Assembly (NCBI GenBank): GCA_030390025.1
Contig: CM059431.1
Location: 154,196,001-154,260,000, forward strand
Length of the DNA: 64,000 nucleotides
Reading direction: 5' to 3'
Source of the DNA: Squalus acanthias
Taxonomy: Eukaryota
A program made the position numbers and the translations under genes. A model generated the notes under the pieces. That model saw only the letters and a program-made list of their open reading frames with translations, did not search any database and was not told the origin of the DNA. Shown here one piece after another: positions 42,381 through 61,600 of this stretch (positions within the stretch are counted from its first letter, which is position 1; each line of letters starts with the position of its first letter).

Positions 42381-45300
42381 TGCAGGGGGTTTTGGTTTGT
42401 GTCAGCTTCACCTCTGACTTCTGAGCGATTCGAATCGCTCCCATACCCTTGGTTTTACACCTTGGACTTATTTGGGGGCTGTGATAAAAAGTGCAGCAGA
42501 CAACTGCTTTTGATGCCAGAACTTTGATCTTTATTCAAGAAAGTAAAACACAACACAAACACTCTTAACACTCTAAAAGTGGTAAACACTTCAGTACAAG
42601 CGAGGGAAATAACATTAAAAGAGTACGACACCCCTCCCAATCCCACTTTTCTGGCTAGGCTGGACTCCAGAGGACCAGTGATGATACTCACCAGAATCCT
42701 TGACAGTTAGGTTAGTTCGCGGTTTTGGGGTTCACTCTACATGTCGGTTGGTGTCTGCCGTACCCCATACGCGGTAGAGGAATTCAACTGCGTATCTGGT
42801 CAGTCTTCGCGAGTCCACTGATGCGGTAGGGTGCATATTGGATTTATCAGGTGAGTACCAACTTTTCTTTGGTTTAGAAGTAGGGTTTAGAGTTTTTTAA
42901 GGGAAAATCTTACCCAGGGATAAGTCAGGAGTAGATTGTAGAGTGGAAATTTTGCGGTTCTTCGTTTTTCTTCGAGTTGGTTTTCTTTGGCCGTGGTGGC
43001 CCAAATATTGATACTTGGTGTTTGGTTGGTTGTTTCGTGAGGGCCTTGTTGCTGCGAAGTGTCCGATTGTCACTGAGGCGATCATACTGGTTTCTTCACG
43101 TGTCGGCCTACTTTGTTGCATGATCTGGCCTTCGAGCTGTCGAACTTCTGGCTGGACACGGAACGCTGATCCGTGATGTTATTAGAACTGTGTTGCGGAG
43201 AATGCCTCATACAAACATAGAAACATAGAAGATAGGAGCAGGAACAGGCCATTCGGCCCCTCGAGCCTGCTCCGCCATTCAATGAGATCATGGCTGATCA
43301 TCCAAATTCAGGACCCTGTCCCTGCCTTCTCTCCATATACCTTGAACCCTTTAGCTTTAAGAAATTTATCTAACTCCTTCTTGAATATATTTAATGAATT
43401 GGCCTCTACTGCCTTCTGTGGTAGAGAATTCCAGAGGTTCATCACTCTCTGGGTGAAGAAATTCCTCCTCATCTCAGTCCTAAATGGCTTACCCCTTATC
43501 CTTAGACTGTGACCACTGGTTCTGGACTCCTCGGCCATCGGGATCATCCTTCCTGCATCTAGTCTGTCGAGTCCTGTTCGAATGTAATTAGTTTTAATGA
43601 GATCCCCTCTCATTCTTCTAAACTCCAGCGAGTATAAGCGCAATCGACCCAAGCTCTCCTCTTTCGTCATTCCTGCCATCCCAGGTATCAGCCTGGTTAA
43701 TCTTCGCTGCACTCCCTCCATGGCAGGAACATCCTTCCTCAGATAAGGCGACGAAAACTGCACACAATACTCAAGGTGTGATCTCACCAAGGCCCTGTAC
43801 AACTGCAGCAAGACATCCTTGCTCCTGTACTCGAAAGCTTTCGCTACGAAGGCCAACATACCATTTGCCTTCTTAAACGCCTACTGCACCTGCATGCTAA
43901 CCTTTCGCGACTGGTGCACAAGGACCCAGGTCTCGTTGCACTTCACCTTCTCCCGATCTATTGCAGTTCAATAATAATCTGGCTTCCTGTTTTTGACACC
44001 AAAATGGATAACCTCGCATTTATCCACATTATATTGCATCTGCCATGCTTCTGCCCAATCACCCAACCTGTCCAAATCGCACTGGAGTTTCTCGGCATCC
44101 TCCTCATGGCACACACTCCCACTTAGCTTTGTGTCGTCTGCAGACTTGGAGATATTACATCTAATTCCCTCGTCTAGATCATTAATATTTATTGTGAATA
44201 GCTGGGGTCCTAGGACCGATCCCTGCGGTAACCCACTAGTCACTGCATGCCACTCGGAAAAAAAAAACATTTATTGCAACTCTTTGCTTTCTGTCTGCCA
44301 ACTAGTTCTCTATCCAATTCAATACCTTGCCCCCAATCCCATGTGCCTTAACTTTGCACGGTAATCTCTTATGCGGGACCTTATCGAAAGCCTTCTGAAA
44401 GTCCAAATACACCTCATCTATTGGTGTTCTCTTATCTATTTTCCCAGTCACATCCTCAAAAAATTCCGGTAGATTAGTGAAGCACGATTTACCTTTTGTA
44501 ATTCCATGTTGAGTTTGTCCGATCCTGTCACTGTTTTCCAAGTGCTCTGCTATTACATCTTTTGTAATGGACTCTAGCATTTTCCCCACTACCTATGTCA
44601 GGCTTACCGGTCTATAATTCCCCGTTTTCTCTCTACCACCTTTTTTGAATAGTGGGGTAACATTAGCTACCCGCCAATCCGTGGGTACTGTTCCAGAGTC
44701 TATAGATTTTGGGAGATGACCCGCAATGCATCTAATATTTCTCTGGCCACTTCCTTAAGTACCCTCGGATGTAGATTAACAGGCCCTGGGGATTTATCGG
44801 TCTTCAATCGAGTCAATTTACCTAACACTATTTCCCTACAAATACTGATTTCTTTCATTTCCTCTATTTCATTTGAGCCTATGTTCCCCCACATCTCTGG
44901 GAGGTTATTTGTGTTCTCCTTTGTGAAGACAGAACCAAAGTATGTATTTAATTGATGTGCCATTTCTTTGTTCCCCATTATTAATTCCCCTGATTCTTAC
45001 TGCAAGGGTCCTCCGCTTGAATTCACCAATCTTTTTCTCTTCACATATCTATAAAAGCTTTTACAGTCAGTTTTTATGTTCCTCACTAGCTTACTCTCAT
45101 ACTCTATTTTCCCCCTCTTAATTAATCCCTTTGTCCTTCTTTGCTGAATCCTATACTGCTCCCAATCCTCAGGTTTGCAGCTTTTTCTGGCCAATTTATA
45201 TGTCCTCTCCTTGGATCTTATGCTATCCCTAGTATCCTTTGTTAACCACGGTTGAGTCACCTTTTTTGTTTTATTTTTATGCCAAACTGGGATGAACAAA

Positions 45301-48286
45301 TTCTGTCGTTCATTCATGAGATCTTTGAATGTTTGCCATTGCCTCTCCACCGTCAGCCCTTTGAGTGACATTCCCCAATCAATCCTACCCAACTCGCACC
45401 TCATACCATCGTAGTTTCCTTTATTTAAATTCTGGACCCTAGTCTCTGAGTGAACAACTTGACCCTCCACCTTAATGAAGAATTCTATCATATTATGATC
45501 GCTCCGGCTCAAAGGGGCCTTGCATAACAAGATTGCTAATTAATCCTTTCTAATTACATAATACCCAGTTTAAGATGGCCTGATCTCTAGTTGGTTCATC
45601 CTCATATTGGTCCAGGAAACCATCCCGTATACACTTCAGGAATTCCTCCTCCACAGTATTGTTACTAATTTGGTTAGCCCAATCTATATGTAGATTAATG
45701 TAGCCCATGATAACTGCTGTGCTCTTATTGCACGCTTCTCTAATTTCCCTTTTAATGCCATGCCCAAACTCCGTACTACTGTTTGGGTGTCTCTACACCA
45801 CTCCCACTAGCGTTTTCTGCCCCTTGGTATTTCTCAGTCCTACCCATACAGATTCTACATCATAAGAGCTGATATACTTACTTTCAATTGTGTTAATTCC
45901 ACTTGAACCAGCAATGCTACCCGACCTCCTTTTCTTTTTTGCCTATATTTTCTGAATATTGAATACCCCTGTATGCTGAATTCCCAGCCTTGGTAAACCT
46001 GGAGCCAAGTTTCCGTAATCCCAATCATATCATGTTAATTTTCCTCTATTTGCGCAGCTTATTCATCCACCTTATTATGAATGCTCCTCCCATTAAGACA
46101 CAAAGCCTTCAGGCTTGTTTGTTATCGCTCTTCGACCTTTTAGAATTATTATTTACTGTGGCCACGTTTGATTTAAAGCCTTGATTTCTCTGACTGACAC
46201 CTTTGTTTTTTTCCTTCCTGACTTTTGCTTCCATCCTTGTTTCCCTTTCCTCTGTCTCCCTGCTCAGGTTCCCAACCCCCTGCCATTTTAGTTTAAACCC
46301 TCCCCCAGAGCACTAGCAAACACTCCCACAAGGACATCGGTTCCGGTCCTGGCCAGTTGCAAACTGTCCGATTTGTACTGGTACCACCTCCCCCAGAACC
46401 GGTTCCAATGTCCCAGGAATTTGAATCCCTCCCCCTTGCACCATTCCTCTAGCCACGTATTCATCTGAAATATCTTCTATTTCTACTCTGACTAGCACGT
46501 GGCACTGGTAGCAATCCTGAGATTACTACCTTTGAGGTCCTATTTTTTAATTTACCTCCTAACTCCCTATTTTCAGCTTTTAGGACCTCATCCCGTTTGT
46601 TACCTACATCGTTGGTAACTATATGCACCACGACAACTGGCTGGTCACCCTCCCCTTCCAAAAGGTTCTGCAGCCGCTCTGAGATATCCTTGACCCTTGC
46701 ACCAGGCAGGCAACACACCATCCTGGAGTCGCGTTTGCGGCCGCAGAAACGCCTATCTATTCACCTTACAATAGAATCTACTATCGCTATAGCTCTCCCA
46801 CTCTTTTTCCTCCCGTGCTGTGCAGCAGAAACACCCCTGGTGCCAGGAAGTTGGCTGCTGCTGCCTTCCCCTGATAAGCCACCCCCCTCAACAGTATCCA
46901 AAGCGGTATATCTGTTTGAGAGGGGGATGTCCACAGGGGACTCGTGCACTACCTGCCAGCGCCTACTACTCTGCCTGGTGGTCACCCATTCCCTTTCTGC
47001 CTGTGCAACATTTAGCTGCGGTGTGACCAAATGGATAAACGTGCTACACACTTGGTCCTCAGCATTGCGAATGCTCCAGTATGTATCCATTCGCAGCTCC
47101 AGCGCCACAATGCGGTCTGCCAGTAGCTGCAGCTGGAATTAACTTCCTGCACACATGGTCGTCAGGGACAGAGGAAGTGTCCCCGATTTCCCACACAGCG
47201 CAGGAGGAGCATACCACGGCGCCGAGCATACCACAGTGCCATGATTAAATCAAATCAATCCCACCAATTATACTATAGTTAAATGATATAGGGCTCTTGT
47301 TTACCAACTGTCCTCGAAATAACACAGAGACACTAGAAACTATAAACCACAAATTTTAAGTTTTGTAAAAAGCGAAAAAGAGAAATACTCTCCAACCAAA
47401 AACTTACCTGCTTTCTGGAGACGTCACACTTTGATTATTTTTTACTTCTTTCTCTCCCGCTCTCGGGGCTCAGATTGGTAAGCCTAACTCGTCGCTGTCG
47501 CCTTTTACTGCCGCCGCCTCGCCGCTGTCGCTCCACCCAGGTCCGCCGCCTCTGTGGGCCTACCTGCTCGCTGACGCCTTTTATTGCTGCCACCTCGCCG
47601 CTGTCGCTCCACCCAGGTCCGCCGCCTCTGTCGATGTCTTCTCTTTCTTCCTTCCTCTTCTTCTTTTTCAGTTTGAGAACGGGCCTTCAATTATACGCAT
47701 TGAAGATTCCAAATCTGCGCGCCAAATCAGGTCTCGGTCTTTGTTAGTTTTGGCGGGCTCGTCAACGGTCACTGGTTTGTTAAGGTGTGAAGTGGTTGCG
47801 GGATGGTCCCATCCCGTTGATGTGCCACTTAATCGGAGTTTGATTGTTCTGATGTTTTGGGTTTTCTTGGCTGGGCCTATGATTTGTATAGAGTATGCCG
47901 AAGTAATCTGTTTTATGCATGTCTTAATGGGCTCTGTAACTTTGGGGTGTAGACTGGTAATCCTCGGGTTTATTGTTAGGATGCTGAAGTCGCATAGGAG
48001 CCGATTTAAACTCCCAACAAGATCATGCGGTTCCCCAGACAGTTCCCATTAGCTCCAGTACCCAAACTGTTTTTGCAGAGGTTGAACCCACCTTCCTTCA
48101 CAGCTTTTTCTCCCTTACAAGCCCAGACATGTTTGAAAAGTACCAAATCTTGGTTTTTGCTCAACAGGTCCTCCGGTTCGGCCCAATGCACTTCACCACC
48201 CTGTAATAGCTGGAAAGGAGTTCAAAGTCTTTTTCCTTATGGTTTTCTTCGAGTTTTGGGGATCTGTGAATTTTGAGAATATTACA
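42381..48286 (-). repeat. 3' LTR (42381-43208 + 47629-48286), split by a full-length CR1
   Basis: Colinear with 57134-58621 throughout; summed length 1486 vs 1488 bp. Confidence 0.93.
43209..47623 (-). mobile_element. Full-length CR1 LINE (5'UTR tandem repeat, ORF1, ORF2, tail) inserted in the 3' LTR
   Basis: 5' repeats gccgctgtcgctccacccaggtccgccgcctctgt; ORF1 esterase (VCCLPGARVKDISERL); ORF2 APE/RT pieces; tail acatagaaacatagaa; GCCTC at both junctions (43204-43208 / 47624-47628). Confidence 0.93.
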
Positions 48287-48579
48287 GTTCCCGCTGTGAT
48301 ACTTTACCAGCTAGAGTATCATACCGGGTGAGCAAAATTCCTGATACTCGAGAACCAACCTTCCCCTGCAGTTTACCTATCTAAGACCCAAAACACACAT
48401 TTCCCTGTTGATGTAGTGTTCACATGCAGGCACAGGTAAGAATCCAGTTACAAACACATCCAAGTATGGAGGGGGTCCCACACCCCTGCACCAGTTGGAA
48501 AGTATTACATACATAGCAAAAATAATAATACACTTTCACAAAAACGTTATTCCTTTTAAGAAAACAATTCAGGCTCGCC

Positions 48580-50924
48580 CTAAAACTGGCCATAGGCTTT
48601 GTTGTAATGCTGGTCCAATGCTTTCTCATGTCGGGATCGGAGCACTCTGTTCTTTCCCTTGCATTTTGTGCATAGTAATTAGAGAAATATGCCAAGCTGG
48701 CAGACCATTAAAATATGGGAAGCCATTCTGAACCAGAAAGGGACCTCTATATTTTAGAAAATATCCCACCAGGGTGGAATTATGATGCCTGAATTCTCGG
48801 CCCCTATCTCGACTGTCTTTTGTTCCAGAGTGTAGAAATGTTTTTGTGATACTTGTACAGCTTTGAGTAGGGCGGTAAAATGTTTGTGTAGAGGAGCAAT
48901 CTTATAGACGAAGAATGTGACATAGTTTTGCAGGTTGGTAATGATTTCCCTGACAGTGAGGTGAACAGTTGAGGGTTCAGGAATGGGAACAATCCGTTCA
49001 TGGGCCACTTGAACTTCTGCCTCCGGTTTAAAGCAGCAACTACTGTTACTTACCGGACACCAGATGTGCTGTCCATGCTGGTAGTGGGGCGCACTTGTGG
49101 TGACACAATATGTCCCACCCCCTATGAATGCTACCTGTGGGGGAACATGGTCTTGTGCCATTACCTCCATGGTACAGTTGATAGGTCGTGCGCCAGCAGC
49201 TTTAAACCCGCACTGTGGTCTAGAATAGGCATTCAAGTGCTGGGGACACAGTATTATGTGTGCACCCCGGCTCCGGCACCTGGAGTGATCAGTACCCGTC
49301 ATAGCGTGCTCCCACATTATGACATAAGGTGGGACCGCTGCGAAACGGACGTGTATAGCCCCTTGAATGACCCTAATGTTCTCCACCCTGTATACCGGTG
49401 CGGGACGGGCTGTCCCACCCATGACCGGCATCCTCACCACTATCCACATGATAGAGTGATTGGAACGCCCACAATCGACAGGGACTGGGCAGGCTTCAGA
49501 GGCTAGGCGGAGTTGACATGGGCTCAGCGAATTGCTGAACGGGAGGAGGGCTGTGAGGTGTTTGTTGCTAATCCAGGAGGGGACTAAACTTTGTATTAAA
49601 TCCTCCAGGTTGCTGCGGCCCTCGCCCAGCAACCATGCCCCGTATAGTAAACACACCTCATTCTGTGCAGCCTGATCCGAAGCATTCCTCTCCTCCTGTA
49701 TGAGTGCATTAACTGTTTTTGCGTGTCTCTCTGGCTCAGCAATAATCTCCTTTAAGTGGACCTTCATAGCTTGGTCCTCGTGTAGCTCTGAGCATAGAAC
49801 TGTGTTTTCTTCCGTTAGGATCTTTCTCAGTTGTATTTTTAGACCATTTATCTGTGTTTGTAGTTCTATATCGTCCAGGCTATTTATTACAGAGTATCCT
49901 GTATTGCAGGTTGTGAAAATATCGTTTCAGGTCCCCCTTCTCTGTCTCCCTGCGCCCATAGTGTGCTCTGCGTGTAGTTTGTACAGCTCTGCTTTGTCTA
50001 TGTTGGCAAAATCGAATTCGTAGAATTTCCTAAAGATCTCATTCAGCAGGGCCTGGTATAGCTCTTCTGTCTCCTTAGGACACCACTCACGTAAGTCTAC
50101 CTCGGTAAGGTTTAGGATAACTGAAGCTATTGCATAGTGTACCCCCTGGCAGAGTACATTTTCGGTCGGCACTAGCAATAGCCCATTCTCTGGTCCCTTG
50201 CTGGTGGTTGGACATCTCTATATCACTGTCCGTGATGTCCTGGGCGTGGGCAGGGTCTTTCGTGGGCGTGCTACTAGTTCGGTGGCGTTGACTGGGATCG
50301 GGGAGAGTGGGAGCGTGCACCAATGAAGGCTAGAGTCCCACCCCATCCCCTACACGGCATCTTGCCATTGTCTGGAGAAGATGATGGATATGCCTGTGGG
50401 GCAGGCTCTCTCTGATCCCCACATACAGACATAGATTCCCTGTTCTGACTGCCACCACTTGTCCCAACAAACACTCACACCCTCATGGGTCCCTGTGATC
50501 GGCCGGTAGCTGTCCTTCCCCAGTCGTTCCCAGCCAGCTGTACGGTCCCCTATGTCCCTGCTCAGCTTCCTGAGCCATCACCACCTATCCAGGGGAATCC
50601 ATCCCTTGCAGGTGAGACACACATGTTTCCCCTCAGTGACACTGACCCTTGCAGCAACGACCTGTACCCTGGGGCACGGGATGGAGGCCTTCCCGTATGT
50701 GAACCCGGTCTGTCTGGAGTATTCTGTAGAGTTAAACCCCAGCCACCCTGTTCAGCTTCCCTCGTGGAAGTAAATAGCGAGCTCCTCCACACCGGTTTGC
50801 CACCCCCAGCGGTAACGATCGGCGCTCTCTCTCCCGAGCACGCATAAATGTGGGAGTCCTCCACGTCACCTCGGTCGCCGATGCTCACCCCTACCAGGGC
50901 GAGCAGGAGCAGAACCCTTGTCAT
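48580..50924 (-). pseudogene. env: env: class I fusion glycoprotein, F-protein-like (~780 codons, several stops/frameshifts)
   Basis: Signal peptide MTRVLLLLALVGVSIG; furin site RQRR|G at 49936-49947; heptad IELQTQINGLKIQLRKIL; Cys-rich ectodomain (ORF 48754..49767); PPWWDIF then a hydrophobic anchor FRMASHILMVCQLGIFL*LL and a basic tail. Confidence 0.8.
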
Positions 50925-50937
50925 GCCGATTTCCTCT

Positions 50938-50960
50938 CTGTAGGGACACACAAAACAGAT
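50938..50960 (-). promoter_or_regulatory. Putative env splice acceptor
   Basis: tctgttttgtgtgtccctaCAG|agaggaaatcggcATG, 13 nt upstream of the env ATG. Confidence 0.6.
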
Positions 50961-51402
50961 AGCCGTGTCCCAAGAAGATTCTCTGGCTTGACAGGTGATC
51001 GAGTCTCGAAAATTTTAAATTACTTTGGTAAAATAAACTCACTAAAACTAAAACTACCAAAACTGTAAAACACACCTAAAATACACTTTAAACTCTGTAC
51101 ATAGGCCGTCCGTCTCTGGACGGCCAGGCTAAATCCTGTATGGCATCTGCCTTGGCAGCTTCTGAGCAGCCTGTACGCCTGGGCATAAGTTGGCCTGTAC
51201 CGCAGGACCTTGAGAGTCCTTATTAAAACAACTGAGGGTTTTCCTGAATCCCTGATAATCCAGGGAGTGTCCCCTCCTGTGCTACAGCACATCACCCATT
51301 TGGTGTGGCTGCTGAGGCACTGTCCTGTCCTGTGGGTTCCTCGCAGCCTGTGGCCGCTGCCTGGGGATCCCTTTTCTTGGAATGACCCCTAACTTTGGTT
51401 AT

Positions 51403-54400
51403 TCACTTTCGGGTCGCAGCCCTTGCTGGGCTGAACCATTGAAGCTCTGGTGTCCACGCTAGTTTTGGCTGTGGTTTGCGAGGTGATCTTCTTAGGACTC
51501 CCGCTACCGAGGGTGCGTCCGAGTCCCACATAATTGGTGGGCTGGCCCCTCCTGTAATACTGCACACTGCCCCTAGTGGTGCGGTATGTGAGTCTGCCAC
51601 AGCTACTTGCTGAGGATCTCTACCTTTAGGGCGTATCGCCTTTGCTGGCTGTTCCCCTTTGGGCTTAAACAGCTTACACTGGTTAATGTGGAACCACTTT
51701 GTCCGGCGGGGCATCGTTATGGCGTAGACCATGGGGACTGACTTGTCGACAATGCTGTACAGCCCCATGTACAGTGGTTCGAAACTCCCTACCCGGGAAA
51801 AATTCCTAACCATGACCTGATCCCCTATCTCCCAATCGTGGTGCTTGCGGGGTTCTAGCAGCAGTCGGTTACTCCGATGCTGTTTTCCCATGTTGCTTGC
51901 AGCCTGCCAGTGAACCTGTTTAAGGTTTTCAAACAGATTCCTGACGAAGCTGTCCCGGTTCACCTCTATGAGCTGACCCTCCGTGAGCACCGGGGCTAGC
52001 ACATGGGTGGGGGTAAGCATAATCCTGCCTGTCATTAGCTGGTGTGGGGAATACCCCGTGCTTTTTGACTGGCTGGCTCGGATCCCCATTAGGACCAACG
52101 GTAAGACTTCTACGCTCTTCTTGGGTGAGTCTCCCGTTTCCTTCAGAAGCCTTTCCTTAATGGTATGGTGTAACCGCTCCACAGGACCCGATCAATGCGT
52201 GTTGTGGGCAGCGTGCCATTTCCCTTCGATGCCGAGTACCCTGAGGGTCTTCTGCATGACCTGCCCGGTAAAATGACTCCCCTGGTCGGTCTCCACATAC
52301 TGCGGTAGTCCCCATCGTAAGACAACTTCCCTGACCAGAATCCTAGCCGTACGCAATGCAGTAGCAGTACGGCATGGGAACGCTTCCACCCACTTAGAGA
52401 ACATATAGACCAGGACTAGTTAGTACTTAAACCTCCCTGGACGGTGGTTAGGGGCCTGATGTAAACGACCTGGATCGACTGCCATGGTCTCTCTACCCTC
52501 CTGATGTGTCCCATAGATACCTTCCTTTTCTGGGGGTCTGGGATGTTAGCAGCACACACCAAACAGCCGGCACAAAACACGTGGACTTCTTCCCTCAGTC
52601 CTGGCCACCATCCTGTCTGTTCCACCCGTTGCCAGGTGGTCTCAGGTCCTGGATGCAGCGCTCCTGGACCCTCATGGGCCAGTTGAAGGAATTCCCTTCT
52701 AAGCGTCACCACCCACTGCTCCCCCCTGAACAGCATGCCTTTCTGAACGGTGATGGCTGCTGTGCCGTACGGGCCCTTTATCTTTTTTCCCCTTTTTCAA
52801 GGGCGTTCAGGACGGCTTTGAGGACGGTATCCTGGGCTTGGGCCTGTTTTAAGTCCGGGGCCAAGGCTACCCCTTAGGTGCCTCCCTTTCTCTGGATTGC
52901 GACTACCGGACCCTGTTTGCTACGGATCGCAGAATACCCCTTCCCTGGCCCCCTGTTTGGCCAGCTCGTCTGCCTTACAGTTACTCTCCCACCTGGGCTC
53001 TGTCTTTGAATGGGCCTTGAGCTTATGGATATAGACCTTCCCTTCCTCCCCCACAGCCGCCATGATTTTCTCCAAGAGGGGCTTTATGGTGAGGGGTCTC
53101 CCATCAGCGGAGTTATTTCCGCGACGGGACCGGATGGCCAGGTACTCCGTACACGAATTGCATGTGAACATGCTGTCCGAGCAAATCGTGTATGGTGTAG
53201 GGAACTTCTCGGGGTGTGTAACCACGTACACTACCGCGGACAGTTCAGCCTGCTGGGCGCTCATGGTGCTGGGGAGTTTAATTGCCAGGGCAATGCCTGC
53301 CTCCTGGTCATAAACTCCACACCCGGTGAGTCGCTTGCCAGCAGATACTGTGCTCGAACCGTCCACATAGATTTCGCGGCCTATGGGGTGTACCCGGCCT
53401 GATAACCAATATTACTTCCCATACCACTTCAATGGAACACCGGTGGGCTGTCCCTGGGTAGATCATTTTGGCCGCGAGCTTCGGCTCGCAGAGACCTTTC
53501 ACCCTTAGGTCCATCTTGGAGAGAAACAGGTTCCAGCGAGCAATACGGGCACTGCTCACTGTCCCGTCTTTGATTCTCCCATCTAGGAGCATCTGGGTGG
53601 TCGTGTGATGGGTGAGCAGGGTGATGGGATATGTGCCTGTGAAGATCATTGATCTTTTCACAGCCCAGTGAGAGGTGAAGAGTTGCCTCTCACAGTTGGA
53701 ATAGCACTTCTCCACATCGGTGAGTATCCTGGAGGAGGAAACCACCGGTCTCAGCCGGTCGTGCCTCTTTTGGAGCAACACGGCACTCAGACAGTCCCCG
53801 CTCGCTGCCACCTACAGGAAAAACACCCTCTCCCCATCAATAGCCCATGGAGCCGGTGCGGTCTGCAGATCTTTCTTTAACTTGAGAAAGGCTGCCTCGC
53901 AACCCTCGTCCCAGGCCCACTCCACACCCTGTGCAGGAGTCGGAGCAGAGGGGCTGCGGTGGCTGCATAATCCTCAATAAAATCTCTGCCGTACACGGTC
54001 AGCCCTAAAAAGCATCTCACTCCTTTGACTGTGTTGGGGGCTGGTAACTTCTGCACTGCTTCCCTCCTAGCTTTGTCGATTGCCCTTTCCCCCGCGCGCA
54101 CAGTTAGCCCTAGGAATTTTATTTCCTGTTGACCGATCTGTAACTTTTTGGGGTTTAACTTGAAGCCTTCTTGCCGGAGCAGCTCCCGCAGTTCAGCCAG
54201 TAATGGACCGTGTTCCGCTCCCTCATCGGTGAACAGCAGTAGGTCATCCACATACTGTATCAACTGCCGGCGCCGGCTGAAGCCCTTCAAACAATTCGCC
54301 ATGCATTGGTGAAAAATGCTAGGGCTGTAGTGGAAGCCCTGAGGTAGGCATTTCCAGCTGTACTGTTGGACTTTAAAAGTGAAGGCGAACTTGCACTGGT

Positions 54401-55318
54401 CCTCTCTTCATAAACGTATGGACCAAAGCCCGCTGGAAATGTCCAGCACTGTGAAAGTGTTTGCAGATGCTGGGATACTTCCGATGAGGTCGGTGATGGC
54501 TGCTACCGTGAGTGCACAGGCGGGGATGTTACGGTTGAGTACCCGATAGTCCACTGTGGCCCTCCAGGAGTTGTCCGGTTTTCTAACCGGCCACAGTGGA
54601 GAGTTTACGTTGGTGGCTATCGGTCTCAATACCCACTGTGTTACTAAAGAAGCCATGGCCTTTTCCATGTCGGCTTCTGCCTCCCACGGGAAATTGTATT
54701 GCTTCTGTGGTTGGGTCATGGGGTCCCCGCTGACAATAACCTCGACCCCGTTTACCCTCCCAAAATCGTGCTTGTGAGTGGCAAATGCTGCGAGGTGTGC
54801 TCGCACAAATGCCTGGTATGCCATCGGAGTGTTACTGACCATTCGTTCGAGGTCGTAACCTTCCTTTGGTTTCAGGGTGCAAAGGTCCCCCTGACCTGTT
54901 TCCCTGGGATGACTGCAACTTCACTTTCTCTGCCTGTACATGCTCACCACAGACAGTGGTTCCTAAGATCCACTAGAATCCTGTGGCCTGTGATAAAGTT
55001 GGCCCCCAGGATCCCCGTCCCTTCCCGTTCGCAGTTCATCAGGACACAGGTCCACTTGGTGTGGAGTGCTCCTAAATGAATAGACAGCGGGATGGAGAAC
55101 GAGCCAGCCTGCCCGTTACCTGTAAACCCCACTTATCTGTACGGGACCCCATTAGACAGAGGTGAGGCGGCGGAGTTCGCTGAATAGACTATGGTGCTGA
55201 AAGTTCCAGTATCTGACAGATAAGTCACATTCACCTTCTCCACTTCCATCTTAACGAGTGGCCTCTTCCATGCGTCGTACTCCTAGAGACACAGGTTGAC
55301 AGGCTGCGCTGGTTGCAG
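51403..55318 (-). pseudogene. pol: pol: protease, RT, RNase H-like tether, RNase H, integrase (frameshifted)
   Basis: PR YLSDTGT…GILGANF. RT NSPLWPVRKPDNSWRATVDYRVLN, QYVDDLLL. Tether SRILTDVEKCYS.CE…WAVK. RNase H DGSS…SAQQAEL…SDS…KAH…NCKADELAK. IN AHEGPGALHPG…C..C, FSKWVEAFP, TDQGSHF, ERLH.TIK. Confidence 0.93.
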
Positions 55319-57131
55319 TCATAAGTCTGAGTTTGGGGTGGGGCAGATGGGGTTAAAGCACCAGTGCTGGTGGCAACTTTCCCCGGGCCGTTGACTGGAG
55401 CTCGGATTATGGCCACGACCGAGTCTAGCGTGGGGGAAGTGATCGGTGCTTCGCTGCTTGGGGCAGGAGCTGGGGAGTTCTTCCCTACGTTATCCTTCCA
55501 CGGATTCCTACACTCTTTTCTCCAATGCCCACTCTTCCCGCAACCGAAGCAGTTACACTTCGTGTCGGAAGTGTTACCCCCTTCCTGGTGCCACTCTTTC
55601 CTTTTACTAGGCCTTATTTCGTGGATCTTTCCCTCAGGTGGGTGCTCTTCTGTCCCTCTACTGTTCCGGTAGGCCAGGGCCAGTTGTCTGGCCACTGTCT
55701 CCTCGGTGACCCGGGGGTCGTTCGGGTCAAACCGCAGCTCAGATTGGCCCTGATCCGTGGCAAGCTGTTTGCCACTAGGCTTCGGAGCCAGTGGGCCAGC
55801 TCATCCTGATTTAGGTAAACCCGGTCGAGAACCCCATTACAGGCACTCCTGTACACAGGCCACAGTCGGTCTGCGAATGCCTGCGGGGTCTCCCCTACTA
55901 GCTGGGTTGTCTTCTCCACCCAGGAGAAGGGACTACCATCATTCATTCCCATGGCCTCCAGAACTTCCTCACTGATAGCAGCGAATCCACCCTGCCCACT
56001 TTTACTCTCTGCGGACAGTTAGATTTTGCTATCTAGGGAGAAAGGAGCATTTTTGCCATCACGGCATCATCGCAGTCGTTGATACACGCTGCCTGTTCCA
56101 CTTCCATGAAGTGGACTGAGGGGTCTCCTTTTTGGGTGAGCTTGCCCAGGTTTTTTATCATAGACTTAAGCTGTTGGGTGCCATGCGGAGCCACGAATTG
56201 GATTTCAAGAGGTCCTTTTCCCCCACCACGTCGGGCGGCCCAAACTTTTGCTGCCGGTCCGGGCACATCGGCCCCGGACCGACCTTTCCTGCATTGGTTC
56301 GCCTTCCCCTCCCTGCTGCCAAACCGAGTCAAAACCAGGCGCCACAGGTGGTGCTGTACACTCCCTGCCAGCCTCACAAATCGTCCGTCCCTCCTGCTGC
56401 CAAACCGGGTCGTTACCCGGCGTCACAGGTGGCGTCCCAACAGTTTTCCTTTGCATTTCCAGTTCCACCCGGTCCGCACCCGGGCTTAGTAGGCATACCA
56501 CGCCTTTCGCCCTGGAAAGAGCAAGGTTCAAACTCTCGATTTGTTTCTGGCAGGGGCCGTGATCTCCCGCCTCATACCCCCTAGTGTTTGCTATCTTGTA
56601 AGCGGCCTGGACGACTCTCAACCTCTCCTCCTGCTCTCTTACTTGTTTGGCCAGGCGGGCGTTCTCTTCCCGCAACACCAGTTCACTGGTTTTAGCTTCG
56701 CTGACCTGACACTGAAAATATTCCTGCCTGTTTCTGTGTGATTCCACTAGCTGCATTTTTTCCTGCTTTCGGATGGTTAACTCATTCAGTAATGTTTCCC
56801 CTGCTAGGGCCCTTGCTTGAGACAGCTGAGCAGACTCCTGCAGTTCTGCCTTAAGTGCCTCAACACGTTTGTCTAACAGCTGGATCTGTCGCTGGGAGCA
56901 GATCAACCAGAAGGCCTTTTCCACAGATTTCTTGTCGTCCTTGCTCTAAGTCCATTTAGCTGCAGCGTCTATTGGACGCTCAGAACGCAACAGACTGAGT
57001 ACCCATTTCGTGGTTATGTTCACTTTCTCGAACACATAAGAGGAAATTATCTCTTCCATCTTGGTTCTCTCCTCAAAAACAGTGTCCACTGCATCACATC
57101 CCTTTTGCCAAGGTCCTGCCACGGTCGCCAT
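55319..57131 (-). pseudogene. gag: gag: N-terminal coiled coil, capsid-like region, CCHC zinc knuckle (frameshifted)
   Basis: ORFs 56946..57344, 56205..56924 (heptad-rich), 55614..55952 (Q..GETPQAFADRL) and 55231..55695 (CFGCGKSGHWRKEC). Confidence 0.85.
57113..57130 (-). promoter_or_regulatory. Primer binding site, tRNA-Arg(TCG)-like
   Basis: TGGCGACCGTGGCAGGAC, 3 nt after the 5' LTR. It is 17/18 identical to the complement of the vertebrate tRNA-Arg-TCG 3' end (…GTCCTGCCGCGGTCG-CCA, from memory). Confidence 0.8.
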
Positions 57132-57133
57132 TA

Positions 57134-58621
57134 TGTAGGGGGTGGTGGTTTGTGTCAGCTTCACCTCTGACTTCTGAGCGGTTCGAATCGCTCCACTCCC
57201 TTTGTTTCTAGACCTTGGACTTATTTGGGGGTTGTGATAAAAAAAAGTGCAGCAGACAACAGCTTTTGATGCAAGAATTTGATCTTTATTCAAGAGAGTA
57301 AAACACAACAGAAACACTCTTAACACTCTAAAAGTGGAGAACACTTCAGTACAAGCGAGGGAAATAACTTAAAAGAGTGCGACACCTCTCCCAATCCCAC
57401 TTTTCTAGCTATGCTGGACTCCAGAGAAAAAGAGGTGATACTCACCAGAATCCTTGACAGTTAGGTTAGTTCGCGGTTTTGGGGTTCACTCTATATGTCG
57501 GTTGGTGTCTGCCGTATCCCGTACGTGGTAGAGGACATCAACTGCGTATCTGGTCAGTCTTCACGAGTCCACTGATGCGATAGGATGCGTATTGGATTTA
57601 TCAGGTGAGTACCCCCTTTTCTTGGTTTGGAAGTAGGGTTTAGAGTTTTTTAAGGGAAATTCTTACACAGGGGTAAGTTAGGAATAGATTGTAGAGTGGA
57701 AACTTTACGGTTATTCAGTTTTCTTCGAGTTGGTTTTCTTTGGGCGTGGTGTCCCACATGTTAATACTTGGTGTTTGGTTGGTTGTTTCGTGAGGGCCTT
57801 GTTGCCGTGAGGTGTCCGATGGTCACTGAGGCGGTCGTTCTGGTTTCTTCACGTGTCGGCCTACTTTTTTGGACGGCGTGGCCTTCGAGCTGTCGACCTC
57901 CTTGCTGGACACGGAACGCTGAACGGTGTTGGTTTTCGAACTGTATTGCAGAGAATGCCTCCGTCGATGTCTTCTTGTTCTTCCTTCCTCTTCTTCTTTT
58001 TCAGGTTGAGAACGGGCCTTCAATTATACCCTACGCAGGTTCACTTTCTGCGTGCCAAATCAGGTCTGGACCTTGGATGGTTTTGGCGGTGCTCGTTAAC
58101 GGTAAATGGTAAGTTAGGGTCTGAAGTGGTTCCAGGATGGCCCACATCCTGTCAATTTGCCACTTAATCGGAGTTTGATTGTTCTTATGTTTTGGGTTTT
58201 CTTGGCTGGGCCTTTGATTTCTATGGAGTAGGCCGAAGTAATCTGCTTTATGCTTGTCTTAATGAGCTCTGTAAATTGAGGTGGAGATTGGTTTTCCTCG
58301 GGATTATTGTTAGGATGCTAATGTCTGATAGTGGCCGATTTATACTCGCAGCGAGATCATGCAGTTCCCCAGAGAGTTCCCATTAGCTCCAATACCCACA
58401 CTTTTTTTTACAGAGTTTGAACCCACCTTCCTTCACAGCCTTTTCTCCCTTACAAGCCCAGACATGTTTTAAAAGTACCAAATCTTGCTTTTTGCTCAAA
58501 GGGTCCTCCAGTTAGGCCCAATGCCCTTCAACATTCTGTAATAGCTAGAAAGGAGTCCAAAGTCTATTCTTACGGTTTGTCTTCGAGTTTTGGGGGATCT
58601 GTGAATGTCGAGAATCTGACA
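57134..58621 (-). repeat. 5' LTR (1488 bp) with TATA (58338-58344), splice donor (57446|57445) and AATAAA (57285-57290)
   Basis: TG…CA termini; minus-strand TATAAAT, CTG|GTGAGT and AATAAA. The donor and AATAAA are also present in the 3' LTR. Confidence 0.93.
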
Positions 58622-61600
58622 GAGGCAGTCACGCCACTTCCGTTAGGTAGTGGCACAGGTCTGGTTAGTGTTCGGGTTCAGGAGGGTGTGGACTGCAACT
58701 CAGGCAGGTAAGGGGTGCCTTGCTGGAGGAGCCTTAGCCTTTGTCCTTGTCCAACAGGTATGAGGTTCTTGCTTCATGTGTGGATGAGGGAAAAGCCTGC
58801 AGGATGTATGAGCAAGCTGACCATGGCACCATGGAGCAGCAGGGCATTCAAGTGGGGTGCGTGAAAGTAAATGTAGTTGAGGTAGGGACAGAATAATCAT
58901 GGGGATAGATACTGTTCTCTGCAGCCACGACCGATTGTTCCAAAGGTTGTGTTGCCTGTCCGGTTCCATGGTCAAAGACACCTCCTCGCGGCTGGAGGAG
59001 AACTTGTAGTGGCGGCGGGTGGGGTGGGGGGGGGCGGGGGGCGGGGGGGAGGTGGATTCCAGTTGTCGTGGTCCACGTAGGACCAACGATATAGGTAGAA
59101 CTGGGAATGCGGTTCTGCTGAGGGAGTTCTAGGAGCTCGGATACAAATTAAAAAGCAAAACCACAAAGCTAATAACCTCTGGATTGCTACCTGAACCACG
59201 AGCAAATTGGCATAGTGTCAATAAGATCAGAGCATTGAATGGTTGGCTCAAAGTTTGGAATGGGAGAAATTTATTTCGATTCATGGTGCACTGCCACTAG
59301 TACTGGGGAAAGAGGGAATAGTTCCGTTGGGACGGGCTTCACTTCAACCATGTTGGGACAAGTGTCCTGGCGAATCTAATAATTATCACTACAGATAGGG
59401 CTTTAAACTAAAAAGTGAACGGGGGCGGGGGGTGGGGGTGTCAGGTGTGGGGTAATTTAGAAAGTTAACGAGAATGGACATGGCAATAGTGCAAGGTAGC
59501 GCTAGGGGTAATGATAACCAGAGTGTGACAGGAAGGGACAGAGCGTACAAACGTAAGTGGCTCGGAAGATGAAGATGCATAATCAGTTTGGGTGGAGATA
59601 AGAAATAGTAAGGGAAATAACTCACTGGTGGGAGTAGTCTATAGGTCACCTAACAGTAGCTACACGGTAGGACAGAGTATAAATCAAGAAATAATGGGGG
59701 CTTGTAAGAAAGGTACTGCAGTAATCATTGGCGATTTTAATCTCCATATAGATTAGACCAATCAAATTGGCAAGGGTAGCCTTGAGGATGAGATCATAGA
59801 GTGTATTCGGGACGGTTTCTTAGAACAATACGTCGTGGAACCAACCAGGGAACAGGCTATTTTAGATCTGGTAATGTGCAATGAGATAGGATTAATTAAT
59901 GATAAAGGATCCTCCAGGGAAGTGTTATCGTAGCATGTAGATTTTCACATTCAATTTGAGGCTGAGAAACTTTAGTCTGGAAATAGTGTCTCAAACTTAA
60001 ATAAAGGCAATTGCATCGGTATGAAGGCAGAGTTAGCTAAAGTGGACTGGGGAAATTGATTTAAAGGTAAAATGGCAGATAAGCAGTGGCAGACATTTAA
60101 GTAGATATTTCATAACTCTCGACAAAATATATTCCAGTGAGAAAGAAAGACTCTACGAGAAGGATGAACCATCGTGGCTAACTAAGTCAGTTAAGGATGG
60201 TATCAAATTGAATGAAAATGCATTTAATGCTACGAAGCTAAGTGGTATGCAAGAACATCTGGCATTTTTTAGAAACCAGCAAAGGATGACTAAAACAGAA
60301 TAAAAAGGTGGAAAATAGATTATGAGAGTAAAATAGCAAGAAATATGAAAACAAACAGTAAAGCTTCTCCAAGTATATATAAGGAAGAGAGTAGCTAAAA
60401 AAAAGTGTTGGTCCGTTAGAGGCTAAGACTGGGGAATTAATAATGGAAAACAAGGACATGGCAGAGACTTTGAACAAATATTTTGCATCTGTTTTCACGG
60501 CAGAATACACTAAAAGAATCCCATTAATAATAGATAATCAAGGGGCAAAGGTGAGGGAGGAACATAAAACAATCACTATCACTAGAATAAAAGTACTAGG
60601 CAAACTAATGGGACCAAAGGCTAACAAATCCCTTGGGCCTGCTGGTCTGCATTCCAGGCTCTTAAAGAAGTGGCTGCAGAGATAGTGAATGCCTTGGTTG
60701 TAACCTTCCAAGGTTCCCTAGATTCTGGAAAGGTTCCAGCGCAATGGAAAACCGCTAATGTAACGCCCCTTTTCAAGAAAGGAGCGAGACAGAAATCAGG
60801 AAACTATAGGCCAGTTAGTGTAACATCTGTCATTGGGAAAATGCTGGATTCCATTATTAAGGGAGTAGCAGCACGACTGTTAGAAAATCATAGTACAATC
60901 AAGCAGAGTGAACATGGTTTTATGAAAGGGAAATCGTGTTTGAAAAATTTATTTGAGTTGTTTGAGGATGTAACGATCAGGCTGGATCAAGGGGAACCAG
61001 TAGATGCAGCGTATTTGGATTTCCAAAAAGCATTCGCTAAGGTACCAAATAAAAGGTTACAGCACAAGATAAGAGCTCACGGTGTTGGGGGTAATATATT
61101 ATCATGGATAGAGGATAGGGTAACTAAAAGAAAACAGAGAGTGGGGATAAATGGGTCATTTTCAGTTTGGCAAACTGTAACTAGTGGGGTGCCAAAGGGA
61201 TCCGTGTTGGGGCCTCAACTATTTACAATTTATTTCAATGACTTGGATGAAGGGACCAAGTGTACTGTAGACAGGTTTGCTGACGATACAAAGATAGGTG
61301 AGAAAACAAGTTGTGTGGAGGGCATCAAGTGTCTGCAAAGGGATATAGATAGGTTAAATGAGTAGGCAAAAAAATTGGCAGATGGAGTATAATTTGGGAA
61401 AATGTGAGGTTATACACTTTGGTAGTAAGAAAGTAAAAGCAAAATATTATTTAAATGGAGAGAGACTGCAGAATGCTGCGGTACAAAGGGATCTGGTTGT
61501 ACTCGGACAAGAAACACAAGCAACTTAGCGTGCAGGTATAGCAATTAATTAGGAAGGCAAATGGAATGTTGGCATTTATTGCAAGGGACATGGAGAATAA

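Follow-up and report, generated by a model that had tools for sequence, protein, structure and literature searches.

Endogenous retroviruses (ERVs) of the snakehead retrovirus (SnRV) clade, which is unclassified within Orthoretrovirinae, occur in birds and reptiles as well as in amphibians and fish (PMC12193657) and form the main ERV class of the coelacanth (PMC4977317). SnRV-like ERVs are also already known from cartilaginous fish (PMC4422223; PMC4977317). Another group, the lokiretroviruses, is defined by a reverse transcriptase (RT) clade that is sister to all known retroviruses, together with an envelope protein (Env) similar to PF00523, and none of six chondrichthyan genomes was positive for it (PMC7947760). 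Here we describe a provirus at positions 42381 to 58622 of a 64,000-nucleotide stretch of the Squalus acanthias genome (assembly GCA_030390025.1, contig CM059431.1, positions 154,196,001 to 154,260,000 of the forward strand; this whole stretch is called the window in the following), which probably adds a further member to the SnRV-like ERVs of cartilaginous fish.

An initial annotation, made from the letters of the window, had read the element as a complete lokiretrovirus-like provirus. We conclude that this old, dead provirus comes from an elasmobranch ERV family of high copy number which probably belongs to a deep, SnRV-like part of Retroviridae and very probably not to the lokiretroviruses: its Pol is nearest to SnRV among the viruses compared, the RT tree joins it to SnRV, if weakly, its RT motifs are of the SnRV type and its Env does not match PF00523. 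SnRV itself we take to be the sole exogenous member of this part of the family.

Anatomy of the provirus

Self-comparison of window positions 40000-61000 revealed one long direct repeat in two blocks, the pair of long terminal repeats (LTRs) of a single element of about 11.8 kb. Both LTRs have TG...CA ends. Because every retroviral open piece lies on the minus strand, the element is read from 58622 down to 42381. In this direction it consists of the following parts:

57134..58622, minus strand: 5' LTR (element sense) of about 1,489 bp with TG...CA ends, repeated directly in the split 3' LTR
57113..57130, minus strand: primer binding site (PBS), an 18-mer starting TGG, 3 bases (TAA) past the 5' LTR, complementary to tRNA-Arg(TCG) at 17/18 positions
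55231..56945, minus strand: gag region, ~1.7 kb, three overlapping open pieces, from the list of open reading frames (ORFs)
54881..55318, minus strand: protease region with 3 in-frame stops, located by tblastn of residues 1-146 of the natural pol frame P0002
53877..54920, minus strand: RT with YVDD and one in-frame stop (Pfam RVT_1, E 2.8e-23)
53308..53811, minus strand: RNase H-like tether (Pfam RT_RNaseH, E 4.1e-13; RT_RNaseH_2, E 9.1e-9)
52920..53411, minus strand: second, canonical RNase H, PF00075 (Pfam RNase_H, E 1.6e-18)
51155..52796, minus strand: integrase (zinc-binding HHCC, core and C-terminal part) with stops and frame shifts (Pfam Integrase_H2C2, E 7.1e-15)
48586..50924, minus strand: env with 7 in-frame stops and 1 frame shift, from the ORF list and tblastn against open copies, with a 784-aa open homologue
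47624..48287, minus strand: 3' LTR, upstream part, 85.9% identical to 57957-58622
43209..47623, minus strand: long interspersed nuclear element (LINE) within the 3' LTR, foreign to the provirus, seen as a gap in the LTR alignment, with RT pieces and an esterase-like ORF1 piece
42381..43208, minus strand: 3' LTR, downstream part with the CA end, 89.9% identical to 57134-57961

The three gag pieces are a coiled-coil-rich one (56205-56945), one at 55614-56018, and one with a single CCHC zinc knuckle (55231-55800); Pfam gave no match to them at E<=0.01 and only a sub-threshold one to PSP. The DTGA motif of the protease is visible in naturally open copies of the family. Within env the order is signal peptide, an extra N-terminal domain of ~220 aa, an F2-like segment, RQRR (49936-49947), an F1-like core, heptad repeat B (HRB) and a membrane anchor. 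Only about 300 bp separate env from the LTR. The polypurine tract before the 3' LTR is weak, and a clean target-site duplication was not found, the flanks being GCCTC and CTCCT in element sense.

All parts named in the initial annotation (two LTRs, PBS, gag, a pol with YVDD and dual RNase H, and a third gene) were thus recovered by self-comparison, ORFs and Pfam. Its description of the provirus as complete applies to the architecture; it does not extend to integrity, given the stops, the frame shifts and the 3' LTR split by a LINE, and the strand had to be corrected to minus.

The LINE insert (4,415 bp) matches RVT_1 at E 1.9e-10 and 2.2e-8, with sub-threshold matches to GDSL lipase and OSK in Pfam. 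A 74-bp tandem duplication (47482-47555 / 47558-47631) adjoins the LINE/LTR junction, and pieces related to the inserted LINE are also found at 59715-59898 and 60754-60856 of the window. By composition, the window further has a block of higher G+C at about 18-26 kb.

Placement by Pol and reverse transcriptase

The queries were naturally open frames of the family, namely P0002 (pol) and the two env frames P0033 and P0080. P0002 aligns with SnRV Pol at 31% identity over 807 aa (E 2e-102). Among 17 confirmed retroviral loci in IMG/VR, SnRV was the best match (E 4e-100). Of the ten genomes of gammaretrovirus size (8.1-8.5 kb), nine gave values of 1e-69 to 3e-80, and the 10.3-kb genome L061 gave 1e-72; the other six loci, including the truncated L063, were weaker. 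We identify the IMG/VR locus L064 as SnRV on two grounds: at 10,688 nt it is exactly as long as the GenBank record that PMC12193657 cites, and its RT is identical to the row labelled SnRV in the supplement of PMC7947760. When Pol was compared with the sequences of solved structures, the RT of murine leukaemia virus (MLV; 1.6e-65) and foamy protease-RT were the best matches, before Ty3.

An RT tree was calculated with IQ-TREE (LG+C20) from 40 rows and 283 columns, using a 275-residue RT core cut around YxDD. The rows comprised the shark family, models from frogs, coelacanth and fish, SnRV, five gammaretroviruses, walleye dermal sarcoma virus (WDSV), Xen1, the 10.3-kb fish virus, six exogenous foamy viruses, three lentivirus-like sequences and ten Ty3/gypsy sequences; the gypsy rows P0016, P0025 and P0026, which have no recognisable YxDD, were left out. 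Supports are given as ultrafast bootstrap (UFBoot) and Shimodaira-Hasegawa-like approximate likelihood ratio test (SH-aLRT). In this tree, a check that the initial annotation had proposed and that was carried out here with Retroviridae and gypsy rows, the retroviruses including the shark family were split from the ten gypsy rows at 100/100. Within the retroviruses, the shark family stood outside the gamma/epsilon clade (99/95), which holds WDSV, Xen1 and the gammaretroviruses, as well as outside the exogenous foamy (100/100) and lentivirus (100/100) clades. It grouped, at only 65/80, with SnRV, three sequences from frogs, two from coelacanth and the unnamed database entry P0004.

The split from the gypsy rows, the retroviral arrangement of a second RNase H (PF00075) plus tether, and the ranking of MLV RT and foamy protease-RT above Ty3 all speak against the element being an envelope-carrying Ty3/gypsy element of the errantivirus type, which would carry a baculovirus-F-type env and would not be a retrovirus. 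Such an origin would agree with fold matches of the predicted Env to baculovirus F/Ld130 (E 8.6e-13 to 2.9e-10) and with a weak Baculo_F match in Pfam, found in one chimeric relative at E 0.0011 and thus below the cut-off. In addition, a preprint found that vertebrates have no ERV homologous to the errantiviruses of invertebrates (10.1101/2023.10.26.564294). We regard a gypsy origin as extremely improbable.

Primer binding site and gag-pol junction

The lone mismatch between the PBS and the 3' end of the host tRNA-Arg(TCG) is a CpG to TpG change, as in CpG decay. When one mismatch was allowed, the tRNA 3' end corresponding to the PBS was found at 288+165 places in the genome, compared with 0 for the reversed control, and ARAGORN predicted a tRNA-Arg(tcg) in all three loci scanned. 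These tRNA genes are themselves conspicuously arranged: tRNA-Arg(TCG) and tRNA-Ser(GCT) occur together in each ~1.62 kb unit of very large tandem arrays, located at L066-L070 and on contig 26 at about 38.99-42.22 Mb.

A PBS for tRNA-Arg is shared with SnRV, in which it fits another isoacceptor, tRNA-Arg(ACG). In 1996 Hart et al. reportedly singled out the tRNA-Arg PBS as a distinguishing trait of SnRV. A second common trait is the position of gag and pol in one frame across a single stop. In SnRV this stop is TAG, whereas all three naturally open shark copies examined have gag-TGA-pol. In both viruses, furthermore, the N-terminal part of Gag is rich in coiled coil and is followed by one CCHC knuckle.

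The same region bears on a different assignment, namely to the foamy-like ERVs (FLERVs) of the shark-plus-frog lineage of Aiewsakun and Katzourakis. This we consider unlikely. In the best tree the shark RT groups with SnRV and falls outside the six exogenous foamy viruses, which form a clade; the shark Gag has a CCHC knuckle, which foamy Gag is not known to have; and shark gag and pol share one frame across one stop, whereas foamy Pol is made from its own spliced mRNA. The PBS also differs, since tRNA-Lys or tRNA-Asn have been reported for FLERVs and foamy viruses (PMC5512871). What would fit a FLERV are the long LTRs of about 1.5 kb, the occurrence of shark-family relatives in frogs, as a frog FLERV clusters with shark FLERVs (PMC5512871), and an approximately unbiased (AU) test that keeps a grouping of the shark family with the foamy clade (p 0.194). 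The envelope contributes arguments on both sides, which are given in the following section.

The envelope

The natural Env has 784 aa. A signal peptide and an N-terminal region of ~220 aa are followed by a conserved segment opening CP..GP.NGLVL and by RQRR, after which come a long helix of heptads, a beta core rich in cysteine, another heptad region, a stretch rich in tryptophan and finally the membrane anchor. HMMER found 47 relatives of it among 1.84 billion representatives. Sequence searches pointed to no known envelope family: Pfam detected none in the window ORFs and natural Env proteins (Ig_3 reached E 0.014 only), the fusion glycoprotein F0 family PF00523 was unmatched in 15 of 15 Env proteins scanned with E up to 1 or 10, and the foamy Env family PF03408 had no match among the Env proteins scanned. 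The ESM Atlas gave no usable Env match. Likewise, phmmer and profile searches with Env against PDB sequences gave no match to F and a marginal one to the HR2/anchor of coronavirus spike (E 0.02).

At the level of predicted structure the result is different. An AlphaFold model built from 31 aligned sequences reached a predicted local distance difference test score (pLDDT) of 70.4 and a predicted template modelling score (pTM) of 0.51, with the beta core above 80. Compared with the PDB by Foldseek, this model best matched F of human parainfluenza virus 3 (hPIV3; E 1e-11) and then F of respiratory syncytial virus (RSV), Newcastle disease virus, Langya and Nipah virus, with 237 matches at E<=0.001 altogether. 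VIA-align gave Z values from 13.0 to 8.8 covering model residues 21 to about 460, i.e. both the F2-like and the F1-like part. The top 50 matches listed by Foldseek and those listed by VIA-align were all paramyxovirus or pneumovirus F, and no foamy Env entry was among these best 50 of either program. Among the predicted viral structures of BFVD, the model matched arli-, lispi- and chu-like glycoproteins, baculovirus F and paramyxovirus F0, as well as Env of walleye epidermal hyperplasia virus 1 (WEHV-1; 2.3e-9), WDSV Env (4.8e-6) and feline foamy gp130 (2.8e-5).

By its predicted fold, the shark Env is thus a class I fusogen of the paramyxovirus-F type, subclass Ib of PMC11468914, and the earlier description of the third ORF as an F-like class I fusogen holds at fold level according to AlphaFold, Foldseek, VIA and BFVD. 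The modelled likeness to F of hPIV3 (1ztm), Langya virus (8tve) and RSV (3rki) comprises the whole F2 plus F1 ectodomain (Z 11-13, 321-362 residues aligned). The proteins also share a furin site followed by a central helix of great length, a core rich in beta structure, HRB and a membrane anchor. In contrast to this, identity is only 8-13% and sequence similarity was undetectable by phmmer or profile; the shark Env furthermore has the extra N-terminal domain and is encoded by a retrovirus.

Profile comparisons connect the shark Env to those of other retroviruses. Its profile (A3) matched SnRV Env (L064, 7631-9300) with an hhalign probability of 93.7% (E 2e-7, 357 columns) and WDSV Env (L091, 5962-9648) with 96.4% (E 1.1e-9, 346 columns). 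The shark protein is shorter than both, SnRV Env having about 1,100 aa and WDSV Env about 1,230 aa, and for WDSV the likeness of the Env core stands beside an RT clade that excludes the shark family. SnRV and the epsilonretroviruses therefore have envelopes of the F-fold type as well. In a literature search that was incomplete we found no published statement of an F-like Env in SnRV or the epsilonretroviruses.

For foamy virus Env the profile reached only 18.7% over 95 columns, so that profile homology was not found. The published foamy Env structure, on the other hand, places foamy gp130 in the same fusogen subclass (PMC11468914), and this F-like structure together with the feline foamy match in BFVD would be compatible with a FLERV. 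The architecture argues against one. In the shark Env the extra domain lies N-terminal to the F2-like segment, whereas the foamy receptor-binding domain follows the F2-like part and precedes the furin site, and the leader peptide cleaved from foamy Env (PMC11468914) is missing from the shark protein.

Comparison with lokiretroviruses

The initial annotation had held that dual RNase H plus an F-like Env defines lokiretroviruses. This rule fails, as the Env family of the shark element is homologous to the Envs of SnRV and WDSV, which are canonical retroviruses. An F-type Env is accordingly not diagnostic of lokiretroviruses, because the SnRV and WDSV Envs are homologous by profile and foamy Env is F-like as well (PMC11468914).

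A lokiretrovirus at this locus would be the first one in cartilaginous fishes. Some features do recall this group. Both have the order LTR-gag-pol-env with protease, RT, tether, RNase H and integrase, a layout common to all retroviruses, and a furin-cleaved Env related to F of Mononegavirales (PMC7947760), so that the shark element combines dual RNase H with an F-fold Env. Compared by eye with the printed Loki Envs, the start of the shark segment (GP..G[IL][VM]L) and the residues after the furin site (..SV.N[SA].D) are similar, and the RT thumb motif FIEDYA resembles the Loki rows. The lokiretroviral smc gene may have a parallel in the coiled-coil-rich 5' region of the shark element. Frogs and coelacanth, two groups with lokiretroviruses of their own, contain relatives of shark env and pol, and in the tree rooted with the outgroup SnRV and the shark group form the first retroviral branch, with weak support.

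The RT motifs nevertheless separate the two. Shark-family RTs carry DISNGFWS and PQGFH.SP, and the hallmark Loki motifs PFGYANSPAEF and IYVDDIL are absent. In the supplement of PMC7947760 both shark motifs are confined to SnRV rows; all three occurrences of DISNGFWS fall in such rows and none in a Loki row, and PQGFHNSP appears nowhere in the supplement text. A hand count over a 47-residue RT block of the printed rows gave 36 residues shared with SnRV versus 24 with a Loki row. Motifs and count are thus in favour of SnRV.

The Envs differ too. The ~220 aa N-terminal domain is missing from the printed Loki Envs (about 570 aa), which by eye look like a minimal version of the shark-type Env, and the peptide after the cleavage site appears less hydrophobic in the shark protein than the Loki fusion peptide. 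PF00523 was unmatched in all 15 Env proteins. Four motifs of the Env relative from Xenopus tropicalis had 0 matches in the supplement text printing the Loki Envs (Loki-Bsp and Loki-Aro among them) and the Loki-Xtr consensus. Finally, Wang and Han screened Chiloscyllium punctatum and Pyxicephalus adspersus without calling a lokiretrovirus in them (PMC7947760), and relatives of shark-family env or pol are annotated in both species. This evidence, though indirect, is consistent in its direction, and an assignment to the lokiretroviruses seems very unlikely to us.

Decay and duplication of the window copy

The damage to the window copy was counted by tblastn of naturally open frames from other copies against the window. 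The pol part corresponding to P0002 contains 7 in-frame stops and 3 frame changes, and the integrase end a further 3 stops and 2 frame changes, located in its C-terminal part. With env added, the total comes to a minimum of 17 in-frame stops and 6 frame shifts. The LTR pair has diverged by a Kimura two-parameter (K2P) distance of 0.134 over 1,488 sites. At 2.2e-10, the substitution rate that Han assumed for the elephant shark (PMC4422223), this would correspond to about 300 million years; we describe the copy only as old because the rate is uncertain and the second LTR block is poorly aligned.

Four further copies (L010-L013) lie on the same contig at distances of ~0.27, 0.94, 4.7 and 5.1 Mb, with env 94-95% identical. 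All four share the LINE-in-LTR junction with the window. Among seven copies located elsewhere, two gave matches that stop exactly at the junction, one matched inside the LTR part only and four had no match to the test stretch. From the occurrence of the junction in the same-contig copies it follows that the insertion was later multiplied by segmental duplication. The window copy is dead, and counting it the contig carries five copies related by such duplication.

The family in the genome and its relatives

Searches of the 3.71-Gb assembly, whose counts are to be read as first-look candidates, yielded 2,091 matches for RT DNA, 3,059 for env DNA and 10,463 for env protein. All 40 RT DNA matches that were scored are 93-100% identical, and in three of eight RT loci pol is open over 981 aa or more. 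By our own count, 25 of the 71 env matches scored are without a stop across the matched 623 residues, and open frames reach up to 870 aa. Having thousands of candidate copies, many of them with an open env, is unusual for fish ERVs, which are scarce in the elephant shark and amount to 100-700 insertions (PMC4977317).

Close relatives bearing species names come from Heptranchias, Pristiophorus, Scyliorhinus and Rhinoraja, with 83-90% identity in Pol and 60-80% in Env. As the close named protein relatives (60-90%) are solely from sharks and a skate, the elasmobranch host assumed earlier is supported. Remoter Env relatives come from Mustelus, Chiloscyllium and Heterodontus as well as from three frogs, Pelodytes, Mantella and Xenopus tropicalis, and Pol relatives at 42-45% identity are annotated as "NYNRIN-like" models in three frogs and the coelacanth. 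Four gene models (P0030, P0044, P0048, P0071) show pieces of the Env family fused to Niban 1-like, cadherin-related, PH-domain and F-box proteins, which probably reflects chimeric annotation.

The genome contains another, related Env family that is likewise present in many copies, with 9,352 first-look candidates and many open frames of ~330 or ~690 aa. Its best match to a protein of Heptranchias perlo reaches 80%, which is too low for this species itself to be the host. On contig 22, at 1040001-1058000 (L051 and L052), the end of one env lies directly upstream of the LTR of the next provirus, i.e. two proviruses stand in tandem and share one LTR. In this tandem copy env is interrupted by a LINE of the same family as that in the window, and gag is broken.

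The element had also been suggested to be an undescribed family and a host-range extension. The former may hold at the level of the family, but ERVs of the SnRV-like kind have already been published for Chondrichthyes (PMC4422223). The elephant shark ERV described there by Han in 2015, CmiERV lineage I, is likewise a cartilaginous-fish ERV that reportedly clusters with SnRV and is old by LTR dating; compared by description, it differs in its chimaera host and in having few copies versus thousands of candidates.

Discussion

The arrangement described above suggests how the live virus may have worked, and the anatomy points to past infectivity. Reverse transcription would have been primed by the host tRNA-Arg(TCG). 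Gag-Pro-Pol would have been produced by read-through of the lone in-frame TGA between gag and pol, and Pol would comprise protease, RT, a degenerate RNase H serving as tether, an RNase H of the active type and integrase. Entry would have been mediated by a furin-cleaved class I fusogen with a core of the paramyxovirus-F fold, and the extra N-terminal domain of Env was probably receptor-binding. After its insertion into the germ line, the window copy received a LINE in the 3' LTR, was then duplicated segmentally together with its flanks on the same contig, and decayed.

Among exogenous viruses SnRV is nearest by Pol, is the neighbour in the tree and has a profile-homologous Env. Several points weigh against the SnRV-like placement. 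The grouping with SnRV is weak (UFBoot 65, SH-aLRT 80), the tree was without rows for lokiretroviruses, fish or shark foamy-like ERVs, ERV-L and CmiERV, and the AU test does not reject a tree in which the shark family is forced to group with the foamy viruses, at a cost of 4.4 log-likelihood units (p-AU 0.194). Identity to SnRV Pol is merely 31%, against 42-45% for the frog and coelacanth relatives, and therefore the shark family may be a separate deep lineage. Likeness to the SnRV Gag, compared in pieces, is marginal (knuckle E 0.001, coiled coil E 0.043), the shark and SnRV Envs do not match significantly in pairwise BLAST (E 0.79), and the thumb motif FIEDYA..A.PL is nearer to the printed Loki rows than to the SnRV row by eye. 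SnRV has accessory ORFs (PMC12193657), whereas the gap of ~300 bp between env and LTR leaves the shark element no room for an accessory gene of the 3'ORF type. Finally, the Env fold comes from one AlphaFold model (31 sequences, pTM 0.51), an earlier model from 8 near-identical rows having had a pLDDT of 30.7.

We still favour a deep, SnRV-like member of Retroviridae as the most fitting description of the element. A wider proposal, which we put forward only tentatively and consider possible but rather doubtful, is that the shark, frog and coelacanth elements form a deep lineage beside SnRV, and that Env unites the SnRV, epsilonretrovirus, lokiretrovirus and, more distantly, foamy envelopes as one F-fold family.

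Taken by itself, the window locus is unremarkable, being a single decayed member of an abundant ERV family. Of wider interest are the abundance of this family, with its many open copies, and the envelope: the failure of the rule that dual RNase H plus an F-like Env makes a lokiretrovirus bears on scenarios for the origin of the envelope (PMC7947760, PMC9040795, PMC11468914). If the proposal of a deep lineage and one F-fold family is true, a fusogen of the paramyxovirus-F type would be the ancestral vertebrate retroviral envelope, and the F-type Env would not be a special lokiretroviral capture from negative-strand RNA viruses.

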